Source: a virus (taxonomy: Duplodnaviria > Heunggongvirae > Uroviricota > Caudoviricetes). From it: a stretch of 27,901 nt of DNA. The notes beneath the pieces were generated by a model. The model was given only the letters and a program-made list of their open reading frames with translations, had not been told where the DNA came from and did not search any database. Shown here one piece after another: positions 14,892-27,901 of the stretch (positions within the stretch are counted from its first letter, which is position 1; each line of letters opens with the position of its first letter). A program made the position numbers and the translations under genes. The DNA lies in IMG/VR virus record IMGVR_UViG_2684622620_000012; one strand, written 5' to 3'.

Positions 14892-15019
14892 ACGCACACC
14901 TCAGCGTCCTCTACTGTAGTGGCTGTACCAGTCCGTCGAGGTGTACGGATTTTCGGGAGCGACCCTAGACACAGCCTTTTCTTTCGTCGCTCAAAGTCTA
15001 CTACTGTATACGCAACCAG

Positions 15020-16234
15020 TCATCCACATTTTCCGAACTTGCCATGCACCACGTTACCGCCATGTTCGAGCGAATCCATATAGTCGGCGTACCACTGGAG
15101 CATCTCGCGCCGCCCGTCCAGATATTGCGCATGATTGTACGTGCCACGAATTGAGTTCTTATCAACGTGTGCAAGCTGCGTTTCTATCCACGCGGTGTTA
15201 TAGCCCTGCTCATGTAAAATCGTGCTCATGGTGTGCCGGAATCCATGACCAGTAACCTTTCCGTTATAGCCGATGCGTTTAAATACTTGGTTTATGCTAG
15301 CCTCGCTCATTGTTTTCCTTGGATCATTGCGGCCGGGAAACATAAGCGGATAATTACCAGTTAATTCTTTAATCTGCCCAATAAGAGAAAGAGCCTGCTT
15401 AGACAAAGGCACCACATGAGGGCGACGCATTTTCATCCGTGAAGCAGGTATCTCCCAGATAGCCTTGTTGAGATCGATTTCATCCCATAATGCACCGCGC
15501 AGTTCGCCAGTTCGCAAACCAGTGATAATCAGTAGACGAGCCGCCATAACAACCAATGCACTTCCTGAGTAACTGGACAATGCCTTGAAAAAATCAGGCA
15601 ATTCTTTGGCTGTGAGGAAAGGATAATGATTAGATTCATGGCCTTGCATCGCGCTAGTAAGATCTGGGGCAGGGTTATACTCTGCGCGACCAGTGACTAT
15701 TGCATAGCGGAAAACTTCCCCGCACCGCTGCCTCACTTTTTTGGCTTTTTCTGTAGCACCGCGCCCCTCGATGCGTCGCAGCACATTCAGAAGTTCAAGT
15801 GGTTTGATTTCGGCAATTGGTTTTTTGCCAATGTAAGGGAACACATCTTTGTTGAAGGCTTCGAGGATATCTGAAGCATAACCAGCAGACCATTTTTTTA
15901 ATTTGCTGCTGTGCCACTCAAGGGCAATATCTTTGAAGGTATTGTTTAACTGCGTTTCCCGGGCAATCTTTTCCTCTCGTTTCGCTTCCATCGGATCGAT
16001 ACCCCCAGCGATACCCCTTTTAGCTTCTTCACGTTTTGCACGAGCATCAGCCAAGGTAACTTCAGGATACACACCTAGTGCTAACAGCTTCTCTTTACCA
16101 GCTACACGATATTTAAAGCGCCAGTATTTTCCTCCACTAGGTTTTACCAGGAGATACAGACCACCACCATCAGCCAGCTTGTAAGCCTTCTCTTTTGGCT
16201 TGGCAGTGTCTATTTGACGGGCATTGAGTTTCAC
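15020..16234 (-). CDS. int: tyrosine integrase, P4-type (DUF4102 N-terminus plus phage integrase catalytic domain), 404 aa
   Basis: N-terminal KLNARQIDTAKPKEKAYKLADGGGLYLLVKPSGGKYWRFKYR is the hallmark of P4-family integrases; C-terminal HGFRHT...LAH...RGTY contains the catalytic residues; GTG start with GGAGGT upstream. Confidence 0.9.
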   Translation of the reverse strand: MKLNARQIDTAKPKEKAYKLADGGGLYLLVKPSGGKYWRFKYRVAGKEKLLALGVYPEVTLADARAKREEAKRGIAGGIDPMEAKREEKIARETQLNNTFKDIALEWHSSKLKKWSAGYASDILEAFNKDVFPYIGKKPIAEIKPLELLNVLRRIEGRGATEKAKKVRQRCGEVFRYAIVTGRAEYNPAPDLTSAMQGHESNHYPFLTAKELPDFFKALSSYSGSALVVMAARLLIITGLRTGELRGALWDEIDLNKAIWEIPASRMKMRRPHVVPLSKQALSLIGQIKELTGNYPLMFPGRNDPRKTMSEASINQVFKRIGYNGKVTGHGFRHTMSTILHEQGYNTAWIETQLAHVDKNSIRGTYNHAQYLDGRREMLQWYADYMDSLEHGGNVVHGKFGKCG

Positions 16235-16342: not shown

Positions 16343-16562
16343 AACATGCGGATTATAAGAGGTTTTTAAATACTTGAGTAGACTTGGGGAGACGTTAGAA
16401 TGGTGCCGATAATAGGAGTAAAACACTCGATTAATCTCGTGTTAATGCCATCACCTACGACCATTACTAATTGATTGAATCTTATAGAAAAAATCATCAT
16501 TTTCTATGCGTTACAATCAATTTTCACATTACAAACGCTCCGACACTTTAGCCGGGGAGTTT

Positions 16563-17840
16563 ATGAGATACAAGCCCAATCAATACATAATCTGTGATTC
16601 TTACGGTAACTACTATTTAAGGATCACGCTGCCTGTGTATATGCAGCCCTTTTTTGAAGGAAAAAGGACGTTTGTCAGAAGTCTACACACAAGTAATCTT
16701 CGTGTTGCACGTAGAAAGCGTGATCAGATTGCAGATGAATACCATTGTCTACGGGAGAGTGTCGCCCCTGTAAACAGCACAATAGAGAACACGCTGGAAC
16801 TGTTACGCAGTAAGGCTAAATACGCCAAAACAGCTACCAGAATGCAAGATACAGCGTCTTCGTGTCCGTCATTGCTTAAAATTCTTGAAATCTACCTGAC
16901 AATTAACAGCACGAAGAAGAAGCCAGCCACTTTAGCTAAAGCAAGAAAAGCGGTAGAGATGTTTCTCTCCTACCGTAAAAAGCCTGATATTGCATTGCAA
17001 GATGTGAGCCGCACCACTGTTACAGGCTGGATTGAACACATGCAAAAAACCCTTTCACAACAATCAATTGCAAATTATATCAGCCCAATGGCCCAGCTAT
17101 GGGAATTAGCTTCATCACGTTACCACGATGCGCCAGAAAGGGCGCTCTCCCCCTGGCGAGGGCATAGGCTTGATGTGGCACAAAGTAGAGAGAGCTACGA
17201 GGCATTTTCTAACAAAGAGCTATTGCAGGTGTTGCAAGTATTTTCCGGTAATTCAGCAGAAAACAAAGAAATGATGGCTTTGTGTCTTATCGGTGCTTAT
17301 ACAGGTATGCGGATCAATGAGATAGCAAGTCTCACAATAGACGATGTGAAAGAGATCGAAGGTGTGCTGTGTTTTGAAATCACACAGGGAAAAACGAAAG
17401 CTGCGGCACGTGTTGTGCCTGTACATAGCCTTATCACTCCGTTGGTGTTGTCGCTGCGTGAAAAGCCTCATAATGGCTTTTTGTTCTATCACGCCAGCAT
17501 TACAGAGCGTGTAGATGGTAAACGTTCCACGTGGCACACGCAGAGATTTACAAGAGCTAAACGAAAGGCTTTAGGGGAAAAGGGAACAGAAAGGAAGGTG
17601 TTTCATTCTCTGAGACACGGAGTAGCACAGCTTCTTGATCGAAATCAAATTCCAGAAGACAGGATCGCCCTTCTCCTGGGCCATACACGCGGTAAAACGG
17701 AGACATTCCGCACATATAGCAAGAATGCAGCTTCTCCAGTAGAGCTTAAAAAATATATTGAGCTTCTACGCTACCCTGAAATAGAGAAAGGCTTATCAAT
17801 CAATAAAAAATCAAATTTAAGGCGTAAAACAACGCCATAG
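16563..17840 (+). CDS. tyrosine recombinase/integrase (second, divergent), about 425 aa
   Basis: C-terminal catalytic signature FHSLRHGVAQLL ... LLGHTRG ... TFRTYSK (R, H-x-x-R, H, Y); ATG at 16563 preceded by GGGGAG; the track ATG at 16506 lacks an SD. AT-rich. Confidence 0.8.
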   Translation: MRYKPNQYIICDSYGNYYLRITLPVYMQPFFEGKRTFVRSLHTSNLRVARRKRDQIADEYHCLRESVAPVNSTIENTLELLRSKAKYAKTATRMQDTASSCPSLLKILEIYLTINSTKKKPATLAKARKAVEMFLSYRKKPDIALQDVSRTTVTGWIEHMQKTLSQQSIANYISPMAQLWELASSRYHDAPERALSPWRGHRLDVAQSRESYEAFSNKELLQVLQVFSGNSAENKEMMALCLIGAYTGMRINEIASLTIDDVKEIEGVLCFEITQGKTKAAARVVPVHSLITPLVLSLREKPHNGFLFYHASITERVDGKRSTWHTQRFTRAKRKALGEKGTERKVFHSLRHGVAQLLDRNQIPEDRIALLLGHTRGKTETFRTYSKNAASPVELKKYIELLRYPEIEKGLSINKKSNLRRKTTP

Positions 17841-17921: not shown

Positions 17922-18635
17922 CTATTCCTGTTTAAAGGCAGGAGTAATAGTGTCTTCACCTTCACTACTTGATTTTTCAGTGTTAACACGTTTTTTCATA
18001 TTCGCCCCGATGTTCTTAGATGGCTGTGTTTTGATAGCTACAGTGTTTACAGTGCCATACGAAACGAGCCTGATCTGCTCAAAGCTAAGATCAAATACCA
18101 GGGATTCGCTTGCCTCTTCTGTGTATTCGATGCCTGTTAAAACAACGTTCTCAAAAGTTTTATTTTCTGTAACAAGAAGAAAAGGCTGTCTACTGTCCAT
18201 AATCTGATTCAGGTAGTCTATAGCTAATGATCTTCTGTTCCCGTTCACCCCTGCACTCTTTAACAAGCCAGGATCGCTTTTAATCGGTGTTTCAGTGATC
18301 CTACCTTTAAGAGAAAACTTATTGTTTTTAATTTGAACGTGATCAGACACAGTAGCACCATTTTCTACAGGATAGCTAGTAACATCTGCTTGACGTTTTA
18401 CGTTCACATCGTCTACACTGTCAAAAGCCAGTGCCATATAATTTTCATAAACGTCATTGCCAGAAGAAGCCAAGCCACTGGTAACAATAGCAAATCCGTT
18501 CTCTCCTTTTGTTGTATTAGCTTTGCTATTTTCGTTTTTTGTAGAGTTTATATCTTGTTCTGCTTTGTAAACAGCCTGAACGTGTTGTTCTGGAGTATTT
18601 GCTGCACGTATGGTTAAAATCCCGGCGGTCGCCAT
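17922..18635 (-). CDS. hypothetical protein, 237 aa (possible virion/tail-associated protein)
   Basis: Immediately downstream of the tape-measure-like gene; AAGGAAA SD; no motif recognised. Confidence 0.5.
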   Translation of the reverse strand: MATAGILTIRAANTPEQHVQAVYKAEQDINSTKNENSKANTTKGENGFAIVTSGLASSGNDVYENYMALAFDSVDDVNVKRQADVTSYPVENGATVSDHVQIKNNKFSLKGRITETPIKSDPGLLKSAGVNGNRRSLAIDYLNQIMDSRQPFLLVTENKTFENVVLTGIEYTEEASESLVFDLSFEQIRLVSYGTVNTVAIKTQPSKNIGANMKKRVNTEKSSSEGEDTITPAFKQE

Positions 18636-18669: not shown

Positions 18670-20508
18670 TTACCCGCCGTTGGATTGTCCTGATAAGCTG
18701 GTTAATGTTAATGATTTCAAGAAGCTATCCCGACTTGCTCTTGCTGTAAAATCCACATAATCGCTTAATCTTGATGTGTCAGAATTAATAGTAAGAGGAA
18801 CCTCTGTTACCACTTCAAATGTAGGATTCAGATTAAACACAGGAGATAAATTATAAGCCGGAGTTGTCATTGCAAGATTATTTAAAGCACCCTGTTTGAG
18901 ATTGGTTATCGGTGCTTCATTGACTGACATTTTTACATCTGACACAGAAGATTTATCATCGAAAAGCAATCCCTTAATCGTGTTAAAGAGAGAATGACTA
19001 TTATCAGGTGTAGTTGTTGCAGTGCCAGCGCCTTTATATTGGTCAGGAACGAGATTAGAAAGATTCTGTTTCATTCCTTCATTGCTTAATGGCGGTGCAT
19101 CACCTAAATTTTTCTGAATAGCCTCTGTCTTATCATCATTACGATTAAACCAGTTTACAATCTTCATAATAGCTTCAAAGAGACTTCCTGTAGCTTCTCC
19201 CAGCTTCGTAAAATACGGAGTGAGATTAGAAAGGTTTTTCATAAACTCTTCCGTTACTTTTGGATCAAGAGATTTCATAAAGCCGTCTACGAATGCTACT
19301 TGTCTTGCATCAGAAAGCTGTGAAAGCTGTCTGTTTAGTTCTCTGAATTTAACGATAGATTCTTGCTGTGTTTCTGTTAGCCATTTTCCAGAGGCTTTTT
19401 GCTGGTTAATACTTTCTTGTACATCTTTAACGGAACGTTGCCAATATTTTGACGTAAGCATCAAATCATCGCCCAGGTCTTCTAAACGTTGTCCAATTTG
19501 AGAATCTGAAAACCCTTTTTTCATCATTCCATTAACAGCCTTAGAAATTAATCCAGCCGGATTATCAGCAAATTTTTTAAGGTCGCTTTTGTTAATAACA
19601 CCGATGTTTAGAAGTTCATTAATAGCGTTATCACCGCCTTTCCATTCAGATTTTCCGGTTTTCTTGTCTTTCACCAATTCAGCTTCACTGTAGGATTTTG
19701 CGGCACGTTCCCTAACATCTTTCATCTGATCCAGGTATTTTCTAGCCCCTTGATCACCCATCATAGAGTCAACGCCGTTTTTATACGCCCATTCTGTAAT
19801 ATTATACATCTGGTTAACGTCTACACCGCCAAGCCTTGCACGTTGGATCAATTCCCCTTGTGTCTCAGCATTGGCAAAACTATTAGCAACGAATTCGTTT
19901 GCTTTACTCATAGCCATCACGCCAGCAGCCGCTGTAGCGCCTCCAAATAACAGAGCGCCCATAGTGGCGGCATTCCCTGATCCTCCCTTAACAGGTGCAT
20001 AGGCTTTAGCGTGAGCGTTACGATTGCCATTAATCTTACGTTGTTGTTGTTGTAAGCGTTTCATCTGGCTATTCATACGTGCAAGCGAGATAGCCCCTTG
20101 CTCATATTGTTTTGCTATCTCTCTAGCCTGTGCAATAGCTTTATATTGTTCCGCTACAGAGAGGCGGTGCATTGCACTAATGCTTGATCCAACGTCTAAC
20201 AGTTTTAAGGCTGCCTTCTCACTGCGTGCTGCTATTTGTGCCTGTTGCCTTGCCTGTGCTCTTGCTGCGGCAGCTTGTGCTCTTTGATTCTGTTTTTCGG
20301 TTTTAGCTTTCTGTTGAGCAATCTTGTCTACTTCGTTTTGTGCTTTCTTATAGCCTTTAGTGACATTATCAAACCTTAATTTAGCTGGCTTGATATTTTC
20401 TGCGAATTCCTTTAAGCCTGTAATAGAGTCTTTCGCTTTTTTCAAGCTGTCTTTATCTACACTAAATGTAACTGTGTTCTTAATTTTAGAAGTGTTAATT
20501 TCTAACAT
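18670..20508 (-). CDS. tape-measure-like protein, 612 aa (long coiled coils plus Gly/Ala-rich hydrophobic segment)
   Basis: N-terminal Q/A/K/R-rich coiled-coil region and GALLFGGATAAAGVMAMS segment resemble phage tail tape-measure proteins; AAGGGGA SD; assignment is by composition only. Confidence 0.45.
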   Translation of the reverse strand: MLEINTSKIKNTVTFSVDKDSLKKAKDSITGLKEFAENIKPAKLRFDNVTKGYKKAQNEVDKIAQQKAKTEKQNQRAQAAAARAQARQQAQIAARSEKAALKLLDVGSSISAMHRLSVAEQYKAIAQAREIAKQYEQGAISLARMNSQMKRLQQQQRKINGNRNAHAKAYAPVKGGSGNAATMGALLFGGATAAAGVMAMSKANEFVANSFANAETQGELIQRARLGGVDVNQMYNITEWAYKNGVDSMMGDQGARKYLDQMKDVRERAAKSYSEAELVKDKKTGKSEWKGGDNAINELLNIGVINKSDLKKFADNPAGLISKAVNGMMKKGFSDSQIGQRLEDLGDDLMLTSKYWQRSVKDVQESINQQKASGKWLTETQQESIVKFRELNRQLSQLSDARQVAFVDGFMKSLDPKVTEEFMKNLSNLTPYFTKLGEATGSLFEAIMKIVNWFNRNDDKTEAIQKNLGDAPPLSNEGMKQNLSNLVPDQYKGAGTATTTPDNSHSLFNTIKGLLFDDKSSVSDVKMSVNEAPITNLKQGALNNLAMTTPAYNLSPVFNLNPTFEVVTEVPLTINSDTSRLSDYVDFTARASRDSFLKSLTLTSLSGQSNGG

Positions 20509-25021: not shown

Positions 25022-25130
25022 AAAAACTCCTTATTCAGTTAAAAGAAAAAACACCTTGCAAGCCTGACGGCTTCAAAGTGCATTGATTTTGATTATTTAG
25101 AGAAGAATGTTTTTCTGTCCCTCTAATACC

Positions 25131-25159
25131 TATTATTACATATAAAGAAACATTTGTCA
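25131..25159 (-). promoter_or_regulatory. putative sigma70 promoter (TTGACA, 17 bp spacer, AATAAT) for the 25021 operon
   Basis: On the minus strand TTGACAAATGTTTCTTTATATGTAATAAT: perfect -35 hexamer and an AT-rich -10-like hexamer about 100 bp upstream of the first start codon. Confidence 0.4.
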
Positions 25160-26241
25160 ATACCTTTTCATAAAAAATCTGATCTTTTTCATGCACTTAC
25201 ATTTTTTCTTAGCAATTCGTGCTCTCTTGTGTAGTGCTATTCTTCATTATTGTCTAATAACGCTCTAAAACGCGTTATAACGAGATTTTGATAAAAGCAA
25301 TACATTCCCTTATGTAATGGCTGTTTAGCTCGCCAGAGGCTTATTTAAGGGGCTTATTTTGTATTTGTTAGGTATATGAAAAGGTGATGGTAGATATAAG
25401 ATAGAGAGTCACTTTATAAAACGCTCTGTAAAGCTCTGTAGTGAGCTTATATGTGTAGGCAATGCGTTTCCATTCCCTACCCTGCTTAATGCTGTTAGAG
25501 AAGCATTTAGACCCCTTATTTTTAATTACCTAAAGTATCCTCTATACACTCCTGTTATGAAACACCTCTGAATCCTTCATAAAACACATTATGACGCAAA
25601 GAACACTTTTCTAAGGTGATTCCCTTCCTGAATGCTGTTTCTTGCGTCAGAGAGCTACACAGAGCTTATAAAGCTATTATTAATAATAAAGTAGATAAAG
25701 TAAGTAAGATAAAGTAAGAAGATTAACTAAGATAGATAAGATTAATAAGATCAGAATTCTCTTTCGGTGTCGCCTCTGGCTTTTCCACCGAAAACAATTA
25801 CACGACTACAGAATGTAGGAAGTGAAATTGTATTGAGGCTTAGTGAAATTACACGAGGAAAGCAGAGTGTAATTGAGCTTTAGCCGCTCTCTCTTCGAGT
25901 AATTACACAACTACAGAGAATAACAGAGTTATTAAATGTAGGAGGGTAATTAAGAGTTAGAGAGAGTTAACACGTAAGCAATCAGTATGATTGGTTAGGT
26001 GATTACTCTTACTGCGCACAGCGCAATAGTATTTCTTCGTGGGCGTTACCGCCAACGAAGTTACACGAAGAAAGTAACGCTTTGCTTTCGGTGTGAGCGG
26101 AACGGGCCAGCCACGTAGCCCGAAAGGTAGCGGAGTAAGGCTGCTTGCCAGAGAGTGAAGCTAACGCCGGAAGGCAAAAAGATCATATAAATAAATATAT
26201 AATATTATAATTTAATAAGTAATTTAATAAATGATCTAATA

Positions 26242-26380
26242 GGTAACAGAATTCTGTGGGGGTGTCTAACAGTTTTCTGTGGGGGTGTCTAACAGAATTC
26301 TGTTAGGGTGGGGTAACAGAATTTTGTTAGGGTAAAAATCTCTTTAAAAGTTAAGATTAACAGAATTCTGTGGGGGTAGC
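26242..26380. repeat. five direct ~23 bp iterons TAACAGAATTCTGTGGGGGTGTC, each with an ACAGAATTCTGT palindrome
   Basis: Four abutting copies at 26242-26337 and a fifth at 26358-26380; variants TAACAGTTTTCTGTGGGGGTGTC, TAACAGAATTCTGTTAGGGTGGGG, TAACAGAATTTTGTTAGGGTAAAA. Confidence 0.75.
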
Positions 26381-26477
26381 TCACAGTGACCTACCGTTAC
26401 TACCAACTTTCTTACAGAGAGCATTTCAGATAGCTGAATGTAACCTCTCGTTACATCCATTTGTCACATAGCACTCA

Positions 26478-27263
26478 CTCTGTGTAATGCCTTTCTATGT
26501 GTGTGCCATAATCCCCCCTATATTCCCTGTGTAAATCATAGAATATCCCTAACTTATTCCTGTGTAATTCCATACTAAAAATTCAATGAAAAGTAGCTTA
26601 AAAGAGCAATTCTCACTTTCTTCACTTTTACATCACTTTCGCAAATCCTTGTGTAGTGCGGCTTACAGAGCACCATCAGAAATTGTTGGCTAAAAATTGT
26701 TCTGCTTGTTTCTGAACGAGTTCTCTCGTTTGTGCAAATTTTAAAATTTATTTTGTTTTTACAGCCTTATTTCGTGTAATGCGTGGCATAGCAAGCCCTT
26801 TTCTTGTGTTGTCAAAACATTTGGCAACGTTCAAACATCTGTTTAGAAATGCCAAATTGTTGATCTAACAAATAAACCTGTATAAACAGAACACCATTTA
26901 ATCTATTCCCCTGTGTAATCCACTACATCACACGATAAAAACAAAAAAACCTTTAATTATATTTCATAACATATAAAAGTCAACAGAAGCCCTCTCGTGC
27001 TCCTACGTAAAAAATCCATCACTTTTCCCCTGATACATCAATTCAAGGCGTTCTATGTGTTCCTTAGTGCATATTACGATTATTATGTTAAATGGATTTT
27101 GGCCTATATTTTGACCTGCACCCGCATAAACACTGGTTTCATCGCTTACAGCCCTTGTGAGACGTGGTGCTGTTTCTAGCATCTGATCCGACATAAAACC
27201 GATCATTCTCGTGTTTAGTGAAAGTTTAGTGAGAGACATTACAGAAAGGCTTTCTGTGTAATG
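26478..27263. repeat. dispersed same-orientation motif (T)TCCTGTGTA(A/G)T(G)C, at least 7 copies
   Basis: Copies at about 26478, 26525, 26567, 26647, 26770, 26908 and 27251, plus CTTGTGTAGTGC at 25228; spacing 45-350 bp. Confidence 0.65.
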
Positions 27264-27402
27264 ATTTAATAGGTAAAAACGATGTTGATTACGCAAGAAA
27301 ATTCCTTGCTGATATTTGGGGATTCTGGATTTTCCAGATCGGGGGGCGCTGAAAATCGCGTTAAGCACCTCTCGCAATCTAGCCATAAGGGAGGGGATTC
27401 AT

Positions 27403-27495
27403 ATGTATTTAGATGTATTTATAGCTATTTATAGCTATTTATGGCTATTTATTTTTTATTTACCTTTATTCAAAAATAACCTTATAAATCAATAA
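27403..27495 (+). CDS. putative 30 aa hydrophobic peptide (MYLDVFIAIYSYLWLFIFYLPLFKNNLINQ)
   Basis: Near-consensus SD AAGGGAGGGG 6 nt upstream of the ATG; ~22-residue hydrophobic stretch; coding sequence overlaps a tandem TATTTATAGC repeat. Not in the ORF track (under 60 aa). Confidence 0.3.
   Translation: MYLDVFIAIYSYLWLFIFYLPLFKNNLINQ
27404..27452. repeat. tandem 10 bp repeat TATTTATAGC (3-4 copies)
   Basis: GTATTTAGATGTATTTATAGCTATTTATAGCTATTTATGGCTATTTATT; followed at 27545-27580 by three CCTTAAAT(A) repeats. Confidence 0.6.
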
Positions 27496-27742
27496 GATGC
27501 AGAGCTATCTGTTTATATTTTAATCAATTAAATCAAGTTTAATACCCTTAAATCCCCTTAAAATAGCCTTAAATACCCCAATAATTAATTTTAAGGTTTT
27601 CCGTGTTCTCTTCTGCATTATGAAAATGCAAAATAAGGCACAAAACAAGCTCACAGACGCATTAAACACACATCACATATACATCCCTATACCAAGCAAT
27701 GAAAACAGCGTTAGAATGCGTCTTGTTGCGTTCTGGAGATTT

Positions 27743-27901
27743 TCAGAAATCCTCTCTAAGCCATTTCAACTCACTAAGGAGTTTTCTTTCTTCGTTCTCT
27801 CGTTGCTTTCGCTCTAGCCAGGCTTTTCCCTCTGGCGTAGACAGGAACTTACGAGCGTGAATCTTGCGGTTATTACGTTTTATAGCTGCAATGTTTTTCA
27901 T
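27743..27901 (-). CDS. small basic protein, 52 aa, starting at the window edge (possibly 5'-truncated)
   Basis: ATG at 27899-27901, TGA at 27743-27745; K/R/E-rich; RBS cannot be assessed because it lies outside the window; plus-strand ORF 27620..27817 competes. Confidence 0.3.
   Translation of the reverse strand: MKNIAAIKRNNRKIHARKFLSTPEGKAWLERKQRENEERKLLSELKWLREDF

Follow-up and report, generated by a model that had tools for sequence, protein, structure and literature searches.

A repeat-rich, gene-poor tract of an integrated Escherichia coli element is probably the cis-acting core of a satellite of phi92-like lytic phages

What is the role of a long tract of DNA that holds hardly any open reading frames (ORFs) and is crowded with several families of repeats? 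We address this question for a 27,901-nucleotide stretch of the Escherichia coli chromosome (IMG/VR record IMGVR_UViG_2684622620_000012; the whole stretch is referred to below as the window) and, within it, for the tract, or hub, from 25022 to ~27740, which lies upstream of a leftward replication operon. Comparison of the tract and its neighboring genes with related loci suggests that it is probably the cis-acting core of a ~12-13 kb tRNA-integrating satellite of phi92-like lytic myoviruses (Stephanstirmvirinae). The tract is composite: it contains a predicted replication origin matched to the initiator of the element, a conserved structured element, a field of short repeats, a variable cargo slot, and a copy of the boundary of a helper phage direct terminal repeat (DTR), so that the origin is only part of it (Table 1).

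An earlier note, made by reading this sequence, had described a long non-coding region with several repeat families and had proposed a replicon control region, in which origin iterons are combined with centromere-like or repressor sites. The lack of genes is borne out, as no ORF of at least 50 aa is found in 25197-26996; the nearest is a 53-aa ORF with a GTG start (25035-25196) and no family match. ORF-poor DNA extends further, to ~27740, the sole interruption being the cargo slot (26925-27310). The repeats are real as well: Tandem Repeats Finder (TRF) reports the iterons with a period of 23 (3.6 copies, 26244-26327) and a repeat search finds five copies; the GTGTAAT-type repeats exceed random expectation (see below); the paired motif occurs as AATTACACGACTACAGA at 25796 and AATTACACAACTACAGA at 25901 (94% identical); and the AT-rich array of the GATAAAGTAAG type is recovered by TRF. 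Of the proposed functions, the iteron and AT-rich origin with a winged-helix initiator stands, while the centromere and the protein-binding sites at AATTACAC..ACTACAGA do not, for reasons given below. Absent from that account were the DTR mimic at 27309-27387 and the satellite nature of the element.

The element starts at ~16400 with a tyrosine integrase on the + strand, followed by a leftward gene set that includes homologs of virion proteins, several small ORFs and the replication operon. The operon is preceded by a candidate sigma-70-type promoter (TTGACA, 17-nt spacer, AATAAT, upstream TG; 11 of 12 consensus matches), which together with its leader would drive leftward transcription of the replication genes. 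In relatives the element spans the integrase to a tRNA gene (thrW in L003, L004, L006, L008 and L009, tRNA-Gly in L005; L numbers are our handles for the sequences compared). Their tRNA end lies ~600 bp past the end of the window, which places the tract between the operon and the attachment site. Seventeen ORFs of the element were scanned with Pfam and PHROG, and no gene for a terminase, portal, sheath or tube protein was found among them. A tyrosine integrase, site-specific integration beside thrW or tRNA-Gly in relatives, an incomplete virion and packaging set, and helper-specific components and signals are what would be expected of a phage satellite.

Copies of the tract are common. It is matched in 708 of 5426 complete E. 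coli genomes (~13%), in 331 of them over at least 80% of its length, and no matching E. coli genome has an annotated feature within it. Megablast of the tract found no match in phages and, among 72,556 plasmid records, only two partial matches, one of them in a chromosome-sized record. All copies examined are chromosomal or lie within another integrated island, several directly beside a tRNA gene. When genome contigs were scanned for the capsid protein, one Escherichia locus was recovered; the capsid family also occurs in Citrobacter, Klebsiella aerogenes, Enterobacter, Cronobacter, Serratia and Sodalis. The arrangement of the genes and the hub itself are preserved, with the ORFs intact, in Escherichia, Citrobacter, Enterobacter and Serratia, and some copies are damaged by insertion sequence (IS) insertions or loss of iterons.

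Table 1. Features of the element and of its ORF-poor tract, in window coordinates.
Feature	Position	Strand	Basis or remark
Satellite tyrosine integrase, 444 aa, far end of element	16506..17840	+	Pfam Phage_integrase 4.6e-17, DUF6538
Dit-like protein	17922..18635	-	Pfam Dit_like 4.2e-29; homolog of helper post-tape-measure protein
Tape-measure homolog, 612 aa	18670..20508	-	phrog_16051, 1.7e-54
Satellite major capsid protein, 342 aa	20809..21837	-	Pfam Phage_cap_E 3e-14
Predicted replication initiator, 217 aa	23941..24594	-	phrog_270 "replication initiation protein" 1.4e-10; O-like PHROGs
Ribbon-helix-helix-like protein, 55 aa	24646..24813	-	AlphaFold model, Foldseek
First operon gene, 62 aa	24833..25021	-	ORF kept in all relatives
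Candidate sigma-70-type promoter of replication operon	25132..25160	-	Consensus match only
GTGTAGT copy, possible operator	25225..25236	+	0 mismatches; ~65 bp upstream of operon -35
Weak 22-bp match, TTTAGACCCCTTATTTTTAATT, to helper non-coding DNA	25506..25527	+	95% identical to phi92 147334-147355
AT-rich degenerate tandem repeats, GATAAAGTAAG type; lineage-specific insertion	25686..25751		TRF periods 14 and 23, scores 64-65
Conserved structured element, candidate ~430-nt non-coding RNA pointing to the origin	25750..26180	+	Folding z, homologs
Domain 1, with AATTACAC..ACTACAGA stem arms	25830..25975	+	Model R1
Domain 2, with invariant GCGCACAGCGC hairpin and GAGCGGAACG	26005..26180	+	Model R2
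AT-rich stretch (~60 bp), probable DNA-unwinding element	26185..26243		Sequence reading; TRF low-complexity arrays
Five type-A iterons (TAACAGAATTCTGT palindrome plus G run)	26244..26380		Repeat search, TRF
Single non-cognate iteron relics: type B, CTCACAGTGACCTACC, 26380-26395; type C, TGTAAC-N5-GTTACA, 26439-26455	26380..26455		Relatives
Field of at least 8 same-strand YYCYTGTGTAATGC sites	26478..27263	+	Motif enrichment
Most conserved core of right arm of hub	26550..26700		Near-invariant, nine E. coli variants aligned
Variable cargo slot: 79-aa ORF (27003-27242, -), terminator-like hairpin, outward promoter-like site	26925..27310		Locus comparison
Mimic of inner boundary of helper DTR	27309..27387	+	40/40 bp identical to phi92 318-357
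Two 10-bp phased arrays, TATTTATAGC x3.7 (27403-27452) and AATACCCTTA x3.7 (27541-27578)	27403..27578		TRF
Conserved 52-aa ORF, att-proximal end	27743..27901	-	Annotated hypothetical in all relatives

The origin is the best defined part of the tract. Five copies of the TAACAGAATTCTGTGGGGGTG iteron start at 26244, 26267, 26290, 26314 and 26358, at a spacing of 23-24 bp except for the last, which follows after 44 bp. The unit is 23 bp long and consists of a 14-16-bp palindrome, with the palindromic core TAACAGAATTCTGTTA in every copy, and a run of G. The AT-rich stretch adjoins the iterons in the relatives inspected too (E. coli L002-L009, Enterobacter L044, Citrobacter L047), and the Enterobacter and Citrobacter relatives have the same origin layout with iterons of their own. 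The predicted initiator, which the earlier note had named among the candidates to bind sites in this region, has an N-terminal winged helix (Pfam HTH_36 and HTH_24 below cut-offs), an acidic linker and a C-terminal domain, and it matches several O-like PHROGs. At least three tandem dyad iterons, an adjacent AT-rich region and a cis-encoded cognate initiator are thus found together, as in a lambda-O-type origin.

The assignment of initiator to iterons comes from comparison of loci. Nine aligned initiators are mosaics in which one of four types of N-terminal winged helix (A-D) is combined, independently, with one of two C-terminal types, and an IMG/VR scan added 23 loci for a table of 33. Four iteron types were distinguished in them: A, TAACAGAATTCTGT-GGGG; B, TCACAGTGACCTACCCCC; C, TGTAACGnATCGTTACA; and D, GGAAAtCATTTCC. 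Across the 33 loci each iteron type is found with its own N-domain type, and the multi-copy array is the cognate one wherever the region is complete; type-A iterons, for instance, number at least four in nine complete type-A loci, L032 being truncated. The C-domain type, the left-flank type and the type of the terminal-repeat mimic meanwhile reassort across loci, and the N- and C-domains are combined as A/C1 in the window, A/C2 in L007, D/C1 in L029, D/C2 in L009, C/C2 in L003 and C/C1 in L043. Because the N-domain type tracks the iteron type while the other modules reassort, the winged-helix protein is the predicted iteron binder; this comparative evidence is strong. We predict that the iterons and the AT-rich stretch are a lambda-O-type origin matched to its own initiator, dimers of which would bind the five iterons through the N-terminal winged helix, with unwinding of the AT-rich stretch and firing of the origin presumably following helper infection.

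Several copies depart from a single cognate array. The type-B and type-C relics beside the window iterons (Table 1) are units that form multi-copy arrays in L002 (B) and L003 (C), and L004 (3160-3480) and L040 have several complete non-cognate arrays (B, D, E, A) beside the cognate one. Such extra arrays could be leftovers of recombination or a means of answering more than one initiator. A single iteron is left in L001, discussed below, and in L028 and L035, which keep one type-B unit; these copies may be replication-dead, or the number of iterons may be unstable.

Immediately before the AT-rich stretch lies the structured element. The block at 25745-26185 folds at a minimum free energy (MFE) of -161 kcal/mol, compared with -113.7 +/- 5.4 for shuffled sequences (z = -8.78 for the + strand, -6.29 for the - strand); in the remaining blocks of the tract z is -2.6 to -3.5. 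Homologous blocks of lower identity were found in the Enterobacter genome L044, the Citrobacter genome L047 and 16 metagenome contigs, and eleven diverged homologs all have negative z (mean ~-4.7 on the + strand against -3.0 on the - strand, the + strand being lower in 9 of the 11). Aligned with plain MAFFT, the copies from different genera left too many gaps for RNAalifold; covariance models of domain 1 (R1) and domain 2 (R2) were therefore derived from the E. coli copies, and the remaining copies were aligned to these. R1 has 18 strong matches in E. coli, Enterobacter and metagenome loci (42.6-183 bits) and three weak ones (14.9-22.9 bits). Paired cells make up 95.0% in domain 1, against 81.1% after shuffling and 30-42% in slid controls, and 92.1% in domain 2, against 73.1% (slid controls, 30-43% over both domains). 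Compensatory double changes occur at 25 of 42 pairs in domain 1 (11.5 +/- 1.9 in shuffles) and at 43 of 55 pairs in domain 2 (19.6 +/- 2.6), values that none of 500 shuffles reaches in either case. Over both domains there are 152 G-U cells and only 22 A-C cells, which indicates that the + strand is the folded one. The Citrobacter copy (L047) is recovered by neither model, though its conserved anchors are present. Rfam 15 has no match in the tract at the gathering threshold, and with E up to 1 only IsrM appears, at 15.9 bits against a cut-off of 376 bits.

Hairpins of this structure have as their 5' and 3' arms the AATTACAC(G/A)ACTACAGA repeats, along with those inverted GTGTAAT copies that lie to the left of the origin. 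The earlier note had read the former as protein-binding sites and had itself named a long structured RNA as one outcome that would refute it; that part of its interpretation therefore fails. We are fairly sure that 25750-26180 is a functional structured nucleic acid, and RNA is the likelier of the two forms it could take, the other being single-stranded DNA. Most likely, then, the ~430-nt + strand element would be a non-coding RNA (ncRNA) transcribed in the direction of the origin. It lies just upstream of the unwinding stretch and points into it, a placement that suggests activation or priming there, as at R-loop origins, and this is our best guess as to its role; by analogy with the ncRNA of the satellite PLE (see below), a regulatory role is equally open. 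A weak promoter-like site (TTAACT-17-TAAGAT, 8 of 12) lies inside the AT-rich GATAAAGTAAG-type array of the window, which is missing from L003-type copies and from other genera, and no conserved site was found elsewhere. The invariant GGCUUAGUGAA (25838-25848) recurs as GTTTAGTGAAA and GTTTAGTGAGA at 27213-27234 (+), facing the region that codes for the start of the cargo ORF, which gives a short antisense potential but is possibly chance.

An alternative for this block, which we consider unlikely, is that it acts as DNA, either through hairpins of a single-stranded + strand that serve as a primosome-assembly or initiation signal, or as palindromic protein sites. Both strands do fold better than shuffles (z -8.8 and -6.3), the block adjoins the unwinding stretch, no conserved promoter was found for it, and the strand bias is compatible with DNA as well, because G-T pairs are tolerated in single-stranded DNA hairpins. 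Palindromic protein sites, however, are at odds with stems that vary freely in sequence and yet stay complementary, and a multi-branched architecture of ~430 nt with a long closing helix is typical of RNA rather than of DNA hairpins. PLE, the closest analog, moreover makes an abundant ncRNA from the equivalent region (PMC7567579).

The identity of the likely helper is indicated by the mimic on the att-proximal side of the cargo slot. A sensitive BLAST of the tract against 50,697 phage records found 46 Justusliebigvirus-type genomes that match 27338-27383 with 95.7% identity. The match in phi92 falls at 318-363, across the end of its annotated left DTR (1-343), and the 40 identical bp read ATCGGGGGGCGCTGAAAATCGCGTTA|AGCACCTCTCGCAA, where the bar is the repeat end and corresponds to 27363|27364 in the window. 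L003-type satellites have a diverged version, 81% identical over 83-85 bp to Phapecoctavirus genomes; in phage WPEC4, for which comparing the two genome ends with each other gives a DTR of 328 bp, the match (273-357) also straddles the repeat end. TGATATTTGRG and TCGCGTTAA are common to all four sequences (two satellites, two phages), and in the genus-specific middle each satellite lineage agrees with its own phage genus. Enterobacter satellites have a related copy; it weakly matches a Klebsiella phage belonging to the same group, again at this genome position. From this agreement a helper-type end is predicted at 27363|27364: the ~80-bp copy would let the helper terminase recognize and cut replicated satellite DNA for packaging.

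Virion proteins point to the same phages. Between the Dit-like protein and an ORF of Justusliebigvirus alia (L013:14294-15004) there is 62% identity over 205 aa, and the DNA at 18286-18605 is 72% identical to alia. The tape-measure homolog matches L013:12199-14178 (BLASTP 4e-33) with only two differences in the first ~30 residues, and the DNA at 20421-20507 is 85% identical to the helper. The capsid protein is a full-length, distant homolog (23-25% identity) of the capsids of phi92-like, Klebsiella and Erwinia ~147-kb phages. The type of the tail module and the type of the mimic agree in 12 of 14 loci. On these sequence grounds, phi92-like lytic phages are the likely helpers.

Further features of the helper side may be recorded here. 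In both helper genera the outer and inner DTR boundaries are alike (GTTG|AGCC.. or GTTG|AGCA.. and GTTA|AGCACC..; phi92 L011 1-363 and L012 48180-48612; WPEC4 L018 and L019), and phi92 has GATATTTRGGGG ~50 bp to the inside of the inner boundary and its inverted form ~15 bp to the outside of the outer one. The boundary likeness and this layout may reflect terminase or nickase recognition logic; inverted GATATTTRGGGG was not found in the window or in the extension of the tract in L001. The 22-bp match TTTAGACCCCTTATTTTTAATT is borderline (E 0.036 when the whole phage genome is searched, 1e-4 for the concatemer junction); its counterpart lies ~0.9 kb before the right DTR of phi92 and alia and is collinear with the mimic. 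The phased 10-bp arrays (Table 1) are probably curved DNA beside the mimic, and repeats of the TAAATACCCC type also follow the mimic in the Serratia locus L046. The tape-measure homolog is 47 aa shorter than that of the helper (612 against 659 aa), which may mean an altered tail length or interference with helper tail assembly.

The DTR match could instead be a recombination scar, or a shared regulatory site such as a helper-responsive promoter or operator, in a decaying mosaic prophage. Only one boundary is mimicked, exchange does occur, as other DNA segments are common to the element and the phages, and some copies have suffered IS insertion or iteron loss. This reading is nevertheless unlikely: the copied segment is centered on the repeat end in two phage genera, in versions matched to lineage, and gene order and hub are kept over four genera with intact ORFs, with the tract present in 13% of complete E. 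coli genomes.

The consensus of the GTGTAAT-type repeats, YYBTGTGTARTS (at most one mismatch), occurs 17 times in the window against an expected 4.06 +/- 1.59, a number reached in none of 100 shuffles. Twelve of the 17 copies lie in 25225-27298, 10 of them on the + strand; exact TGTGTAAT occurs six times (1.02 expected), five of these within the tract. Two YYCYTGTGTAATGC copies, those starting at 26478 and 26556, are retained throughout the nine loci aligned, although the sequence around them diverges. What looks like a divergent orientation of the motif around the origin is accounted for on the left side by the RNA stems. We tentatively suggest that the GTGTAAT copies could be operator-like sites for a satellite regulator, an assignment that is doubtful in itself; more generally, the field would serve some DNA-binding protein, with a swappable cargo slot beside it.

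Other identities for the motif were considered and set aside. It is not enriched in the phi92 or alia genomes, which excludes it as a helper signal, and the early promoters of phi92 are ordinary sigma-70 promoters with a GGCGGGAA..CCCGCC hairpin, unrelated to it. Likenesses to a DnaA box, an extended -10, a T3 or T7 promoter and a primase site are poor matches, and nothing tested supports them.

A candidate DNA-binding protein is encoded next door. The 55-aa product of the operon, which had been described from its sequence as a ribbon-helix-helix (RHH) protein, has no hidden Markov model match; its AlphaFold model (pLDDT 90) has an extended N-terminus followed by two helices, the RHH fold, and its best Foldseek matches in the PDB are Arc, CopA(SO), MazE and CopG (probability 0.9-0.99).

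These observations bear on the proposal that the tract is a plasmid-like replicon control region, in which the iterons are the origin and the other repeats are centromere or repressor sites for the RHH and winged-helix proteins, giving copy control and stable maintenance. The origin part holds, an RHH-fold protein is encoded next door, the operon promoter has a GTGTAGT copy ~65 bp upstream, and a small site-specific recombinase is often found beside the hub, as in plasmid multimer-resolution systems. The centromere part, by contrast, is not supported. Among the 17 ORFs scanned with Pfam and PHROG, none matches a partition NTPase of the ParA or ParM type; the GTGTAAT copies form no close, regular array at a par promoter, as they are ~30-340 bp apart over 800 bp and mostly far from the promoter; the AATTACAC repeats are arms of a covarying fold; and the element is integrated in all copies examined, with two partial matches among the plasmid records. 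We regard the plasmid-like proposal as a whole as improbable.

That the tract is merely decayed coding DNA with functionless repeats, as its AT-rich composition and lack of annotated features might suggest, is most improbable given the iteron/initiator covariation, the structural covariation, the same architecture in several genera despite sequence turnover, and the lack of a family match for any ORF of the tract.

Several points weigh against the interpretation of the tract as a satellite core, the whole case for which is sequence analysis. With regard to the origin, MRE162 (L001 21214-21243) keeps one iteron, the equivalent of 26274-26357 being deleted, with an initiator that is 100% identical; many of the 33 loci are closely related and do not count as independent observations; and the element has no helicase loader or primase. 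With regard to the structured element, the L003-type lineage lacks domain 1 in a search with R1, no compensatory change is seen among 13 E. coli variants (96-99% identical), and depletion of variation in stems is significant with a consensus structure that is circular to the test (p = 6e-6) and not with the window-only MFE structure (p = 0.18). The alignments behind the covariation counts were themselves fitted to the model, though the z-scores need no alignment; a search upstream of the element in other genera found no conserved sigma-70 promoter, and a clear terminator is lacking. The GTGTAAT sites are left without explanation by this interpretation; hardly any occur in the hubs of Enterobacter and Citrobacter, and their conservation does not extend beyond Escherichia. 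Finally, no mimic of the left, outer DTR boundary of the helper is found in the window or in the L001 extension, so that the second end is unaccounted for. A more ambitious version of the satellite interpretation has the tract as the core of a widespread Enterobacterales family with Stephanstirmvirinae helpers, both phi92-like and phAPEC8-like, in which the mimic hijacks the terminase and a new ~430-nt RNA licenses or primes the origin or controls a switch between helper and satellite; we would give it slightly less than an even chance.

[quoted passage not shown] Like PLE, which is integrated and has a virulent myovirus as its helper, the element would be an integrated satellite of such a phage. 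Each has an integrase at one end, a leftward cluster beside a non-coding region with an iteron origin, which in PLE is bound by the initiator that the satellite encodes, and no further replication machinery besides the initiator. There is no detectable sequence or protein homology between the two, however. The element encodes its own capsid, tape-measure and Dit-like homologs, whereas PLE remodels the coat protein of ICP1, and it differs in its O-like winged-helix initiator, its Enterobacterales host and its Stephanstirmvirinae helpers. The activity of PLE has been shown experimentally; that of the element is deduced from its sequence.

The origin itself resembles lambdoid ori/O, with four to five palindromic iterons of ~20 bp by an AT-rich stretch and an initiator composed of a winged-helix N-domain, a linker and a C-terminal recruitment domain. 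In lambdoid O proteins, too, N-domain and iteron specificity co-vary between relatives and C-domains are exchangeable. Lambda has its origin inside the O gene, whereas the iterons here are outside any ORF and beyond the structured element, ~1.2 kb upstream of where the operon starts and at a distance of 1.65 kb from the gene for the initiator; the element also lacks a P-like helicase loader, and some of its copies have several non-cognate arrays. At transcript-dependent origins (ColE1 RNA II; the R-loop origins of T4 and T7), an RNA is directed at an AT-rich unwinding region downstream, and the structured element similarly leads into the AT-rich stretch. Unlike ColE1, which needs neither, an initiator and iterons are present here; no RNase H site or promoter for the structured element was identified.

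[quoted passage not shown] Unlike them, the element has no alpA/stl-type module, terminase small subunit, portal or protease, and the indicated helpers are large virulent DTR phages rather than temperate cos or pac phages. As at T7-type concatemer junctions, the copied sequence lies exactly at the repeat end of phages with DTRs of 328-343 bp; unlike such junctions, the satellite has only the inner (right) boundary of the left repeat. To our knowledge, the packaging signals of phi92-like phages have not been mapped. The gene set of the element is not listed in SatelliteFinder-type definitions (PMC10085698). In the open literature we found no satellite of phi92, Justusliebigvirus, Phapecoctavirus or Stephanstirmvirinae, most subscription journals being outside this scope, so that a prior description is possible; the paper on the O157 Sakai prophages does not identify the element.

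[quoted passage not shown] Known satellites of this kind act as potent anti-phage defenses and as vehicles of gene transfer, and phi92-like and phAPEC8-like phages are much used in phage therapy. If the interpretation is correct, a common E. coli island would be tied to phi92-like lytic phages as their probable satellite, and a family in ~13% of complete E. coli genomes would bear on the host range and failure of therapeutic cocktails of phi92-like and phAPEC8-like phages. The ~80-bp segment would be a candidate packaging signal for the Stephanstirmvirinae group, the modular initiator and iteron specificities a natural set of orthogonal origins, and the structured element a large RNA-like family outside Rfam with clear covariation.

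The cargo slot varies between loci. In the window its 79-aa ORF, like the other small ORFs, has no Pfam, PADLOC or PDB-sequence match, and its promoter-like site is TTGACT-16-TATAAT (26983-26956). In L002 (11605-12144), L003, L008 and L009 the slot encodes a serine recombinase (Pfam Resolvase 6.4e-34) and in L007 a 183-aa ORF, and in Enterobacter (L044 4166-4726), Serratia and Citrobacter a tyrosine recombinase of 183-192 aa is encoded next to the hub, att-proximal to the mimic. A recombinase in this position could resolve multimers or concatemers.

At the two ends of the operon and tract, the 62-aa and 52-aa ORFs have no family match. Between the 52-aa ORF and the tRNA site, relatives have ~600 bp of conserved ORF-poor DNA (L001 22760-23395; L003 12230-12830), which presumably holds attP arm sites, though it is long for these. 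The remainder of the window, from 1 to ~16300, is a P4/CP4-like island; its integrase gene occupies 15020-16234 (-) and its int-alpA RNA 14908-14975 (RF02996, 45.5 bits), and it is integrated back-to-back with the satellite integrase.

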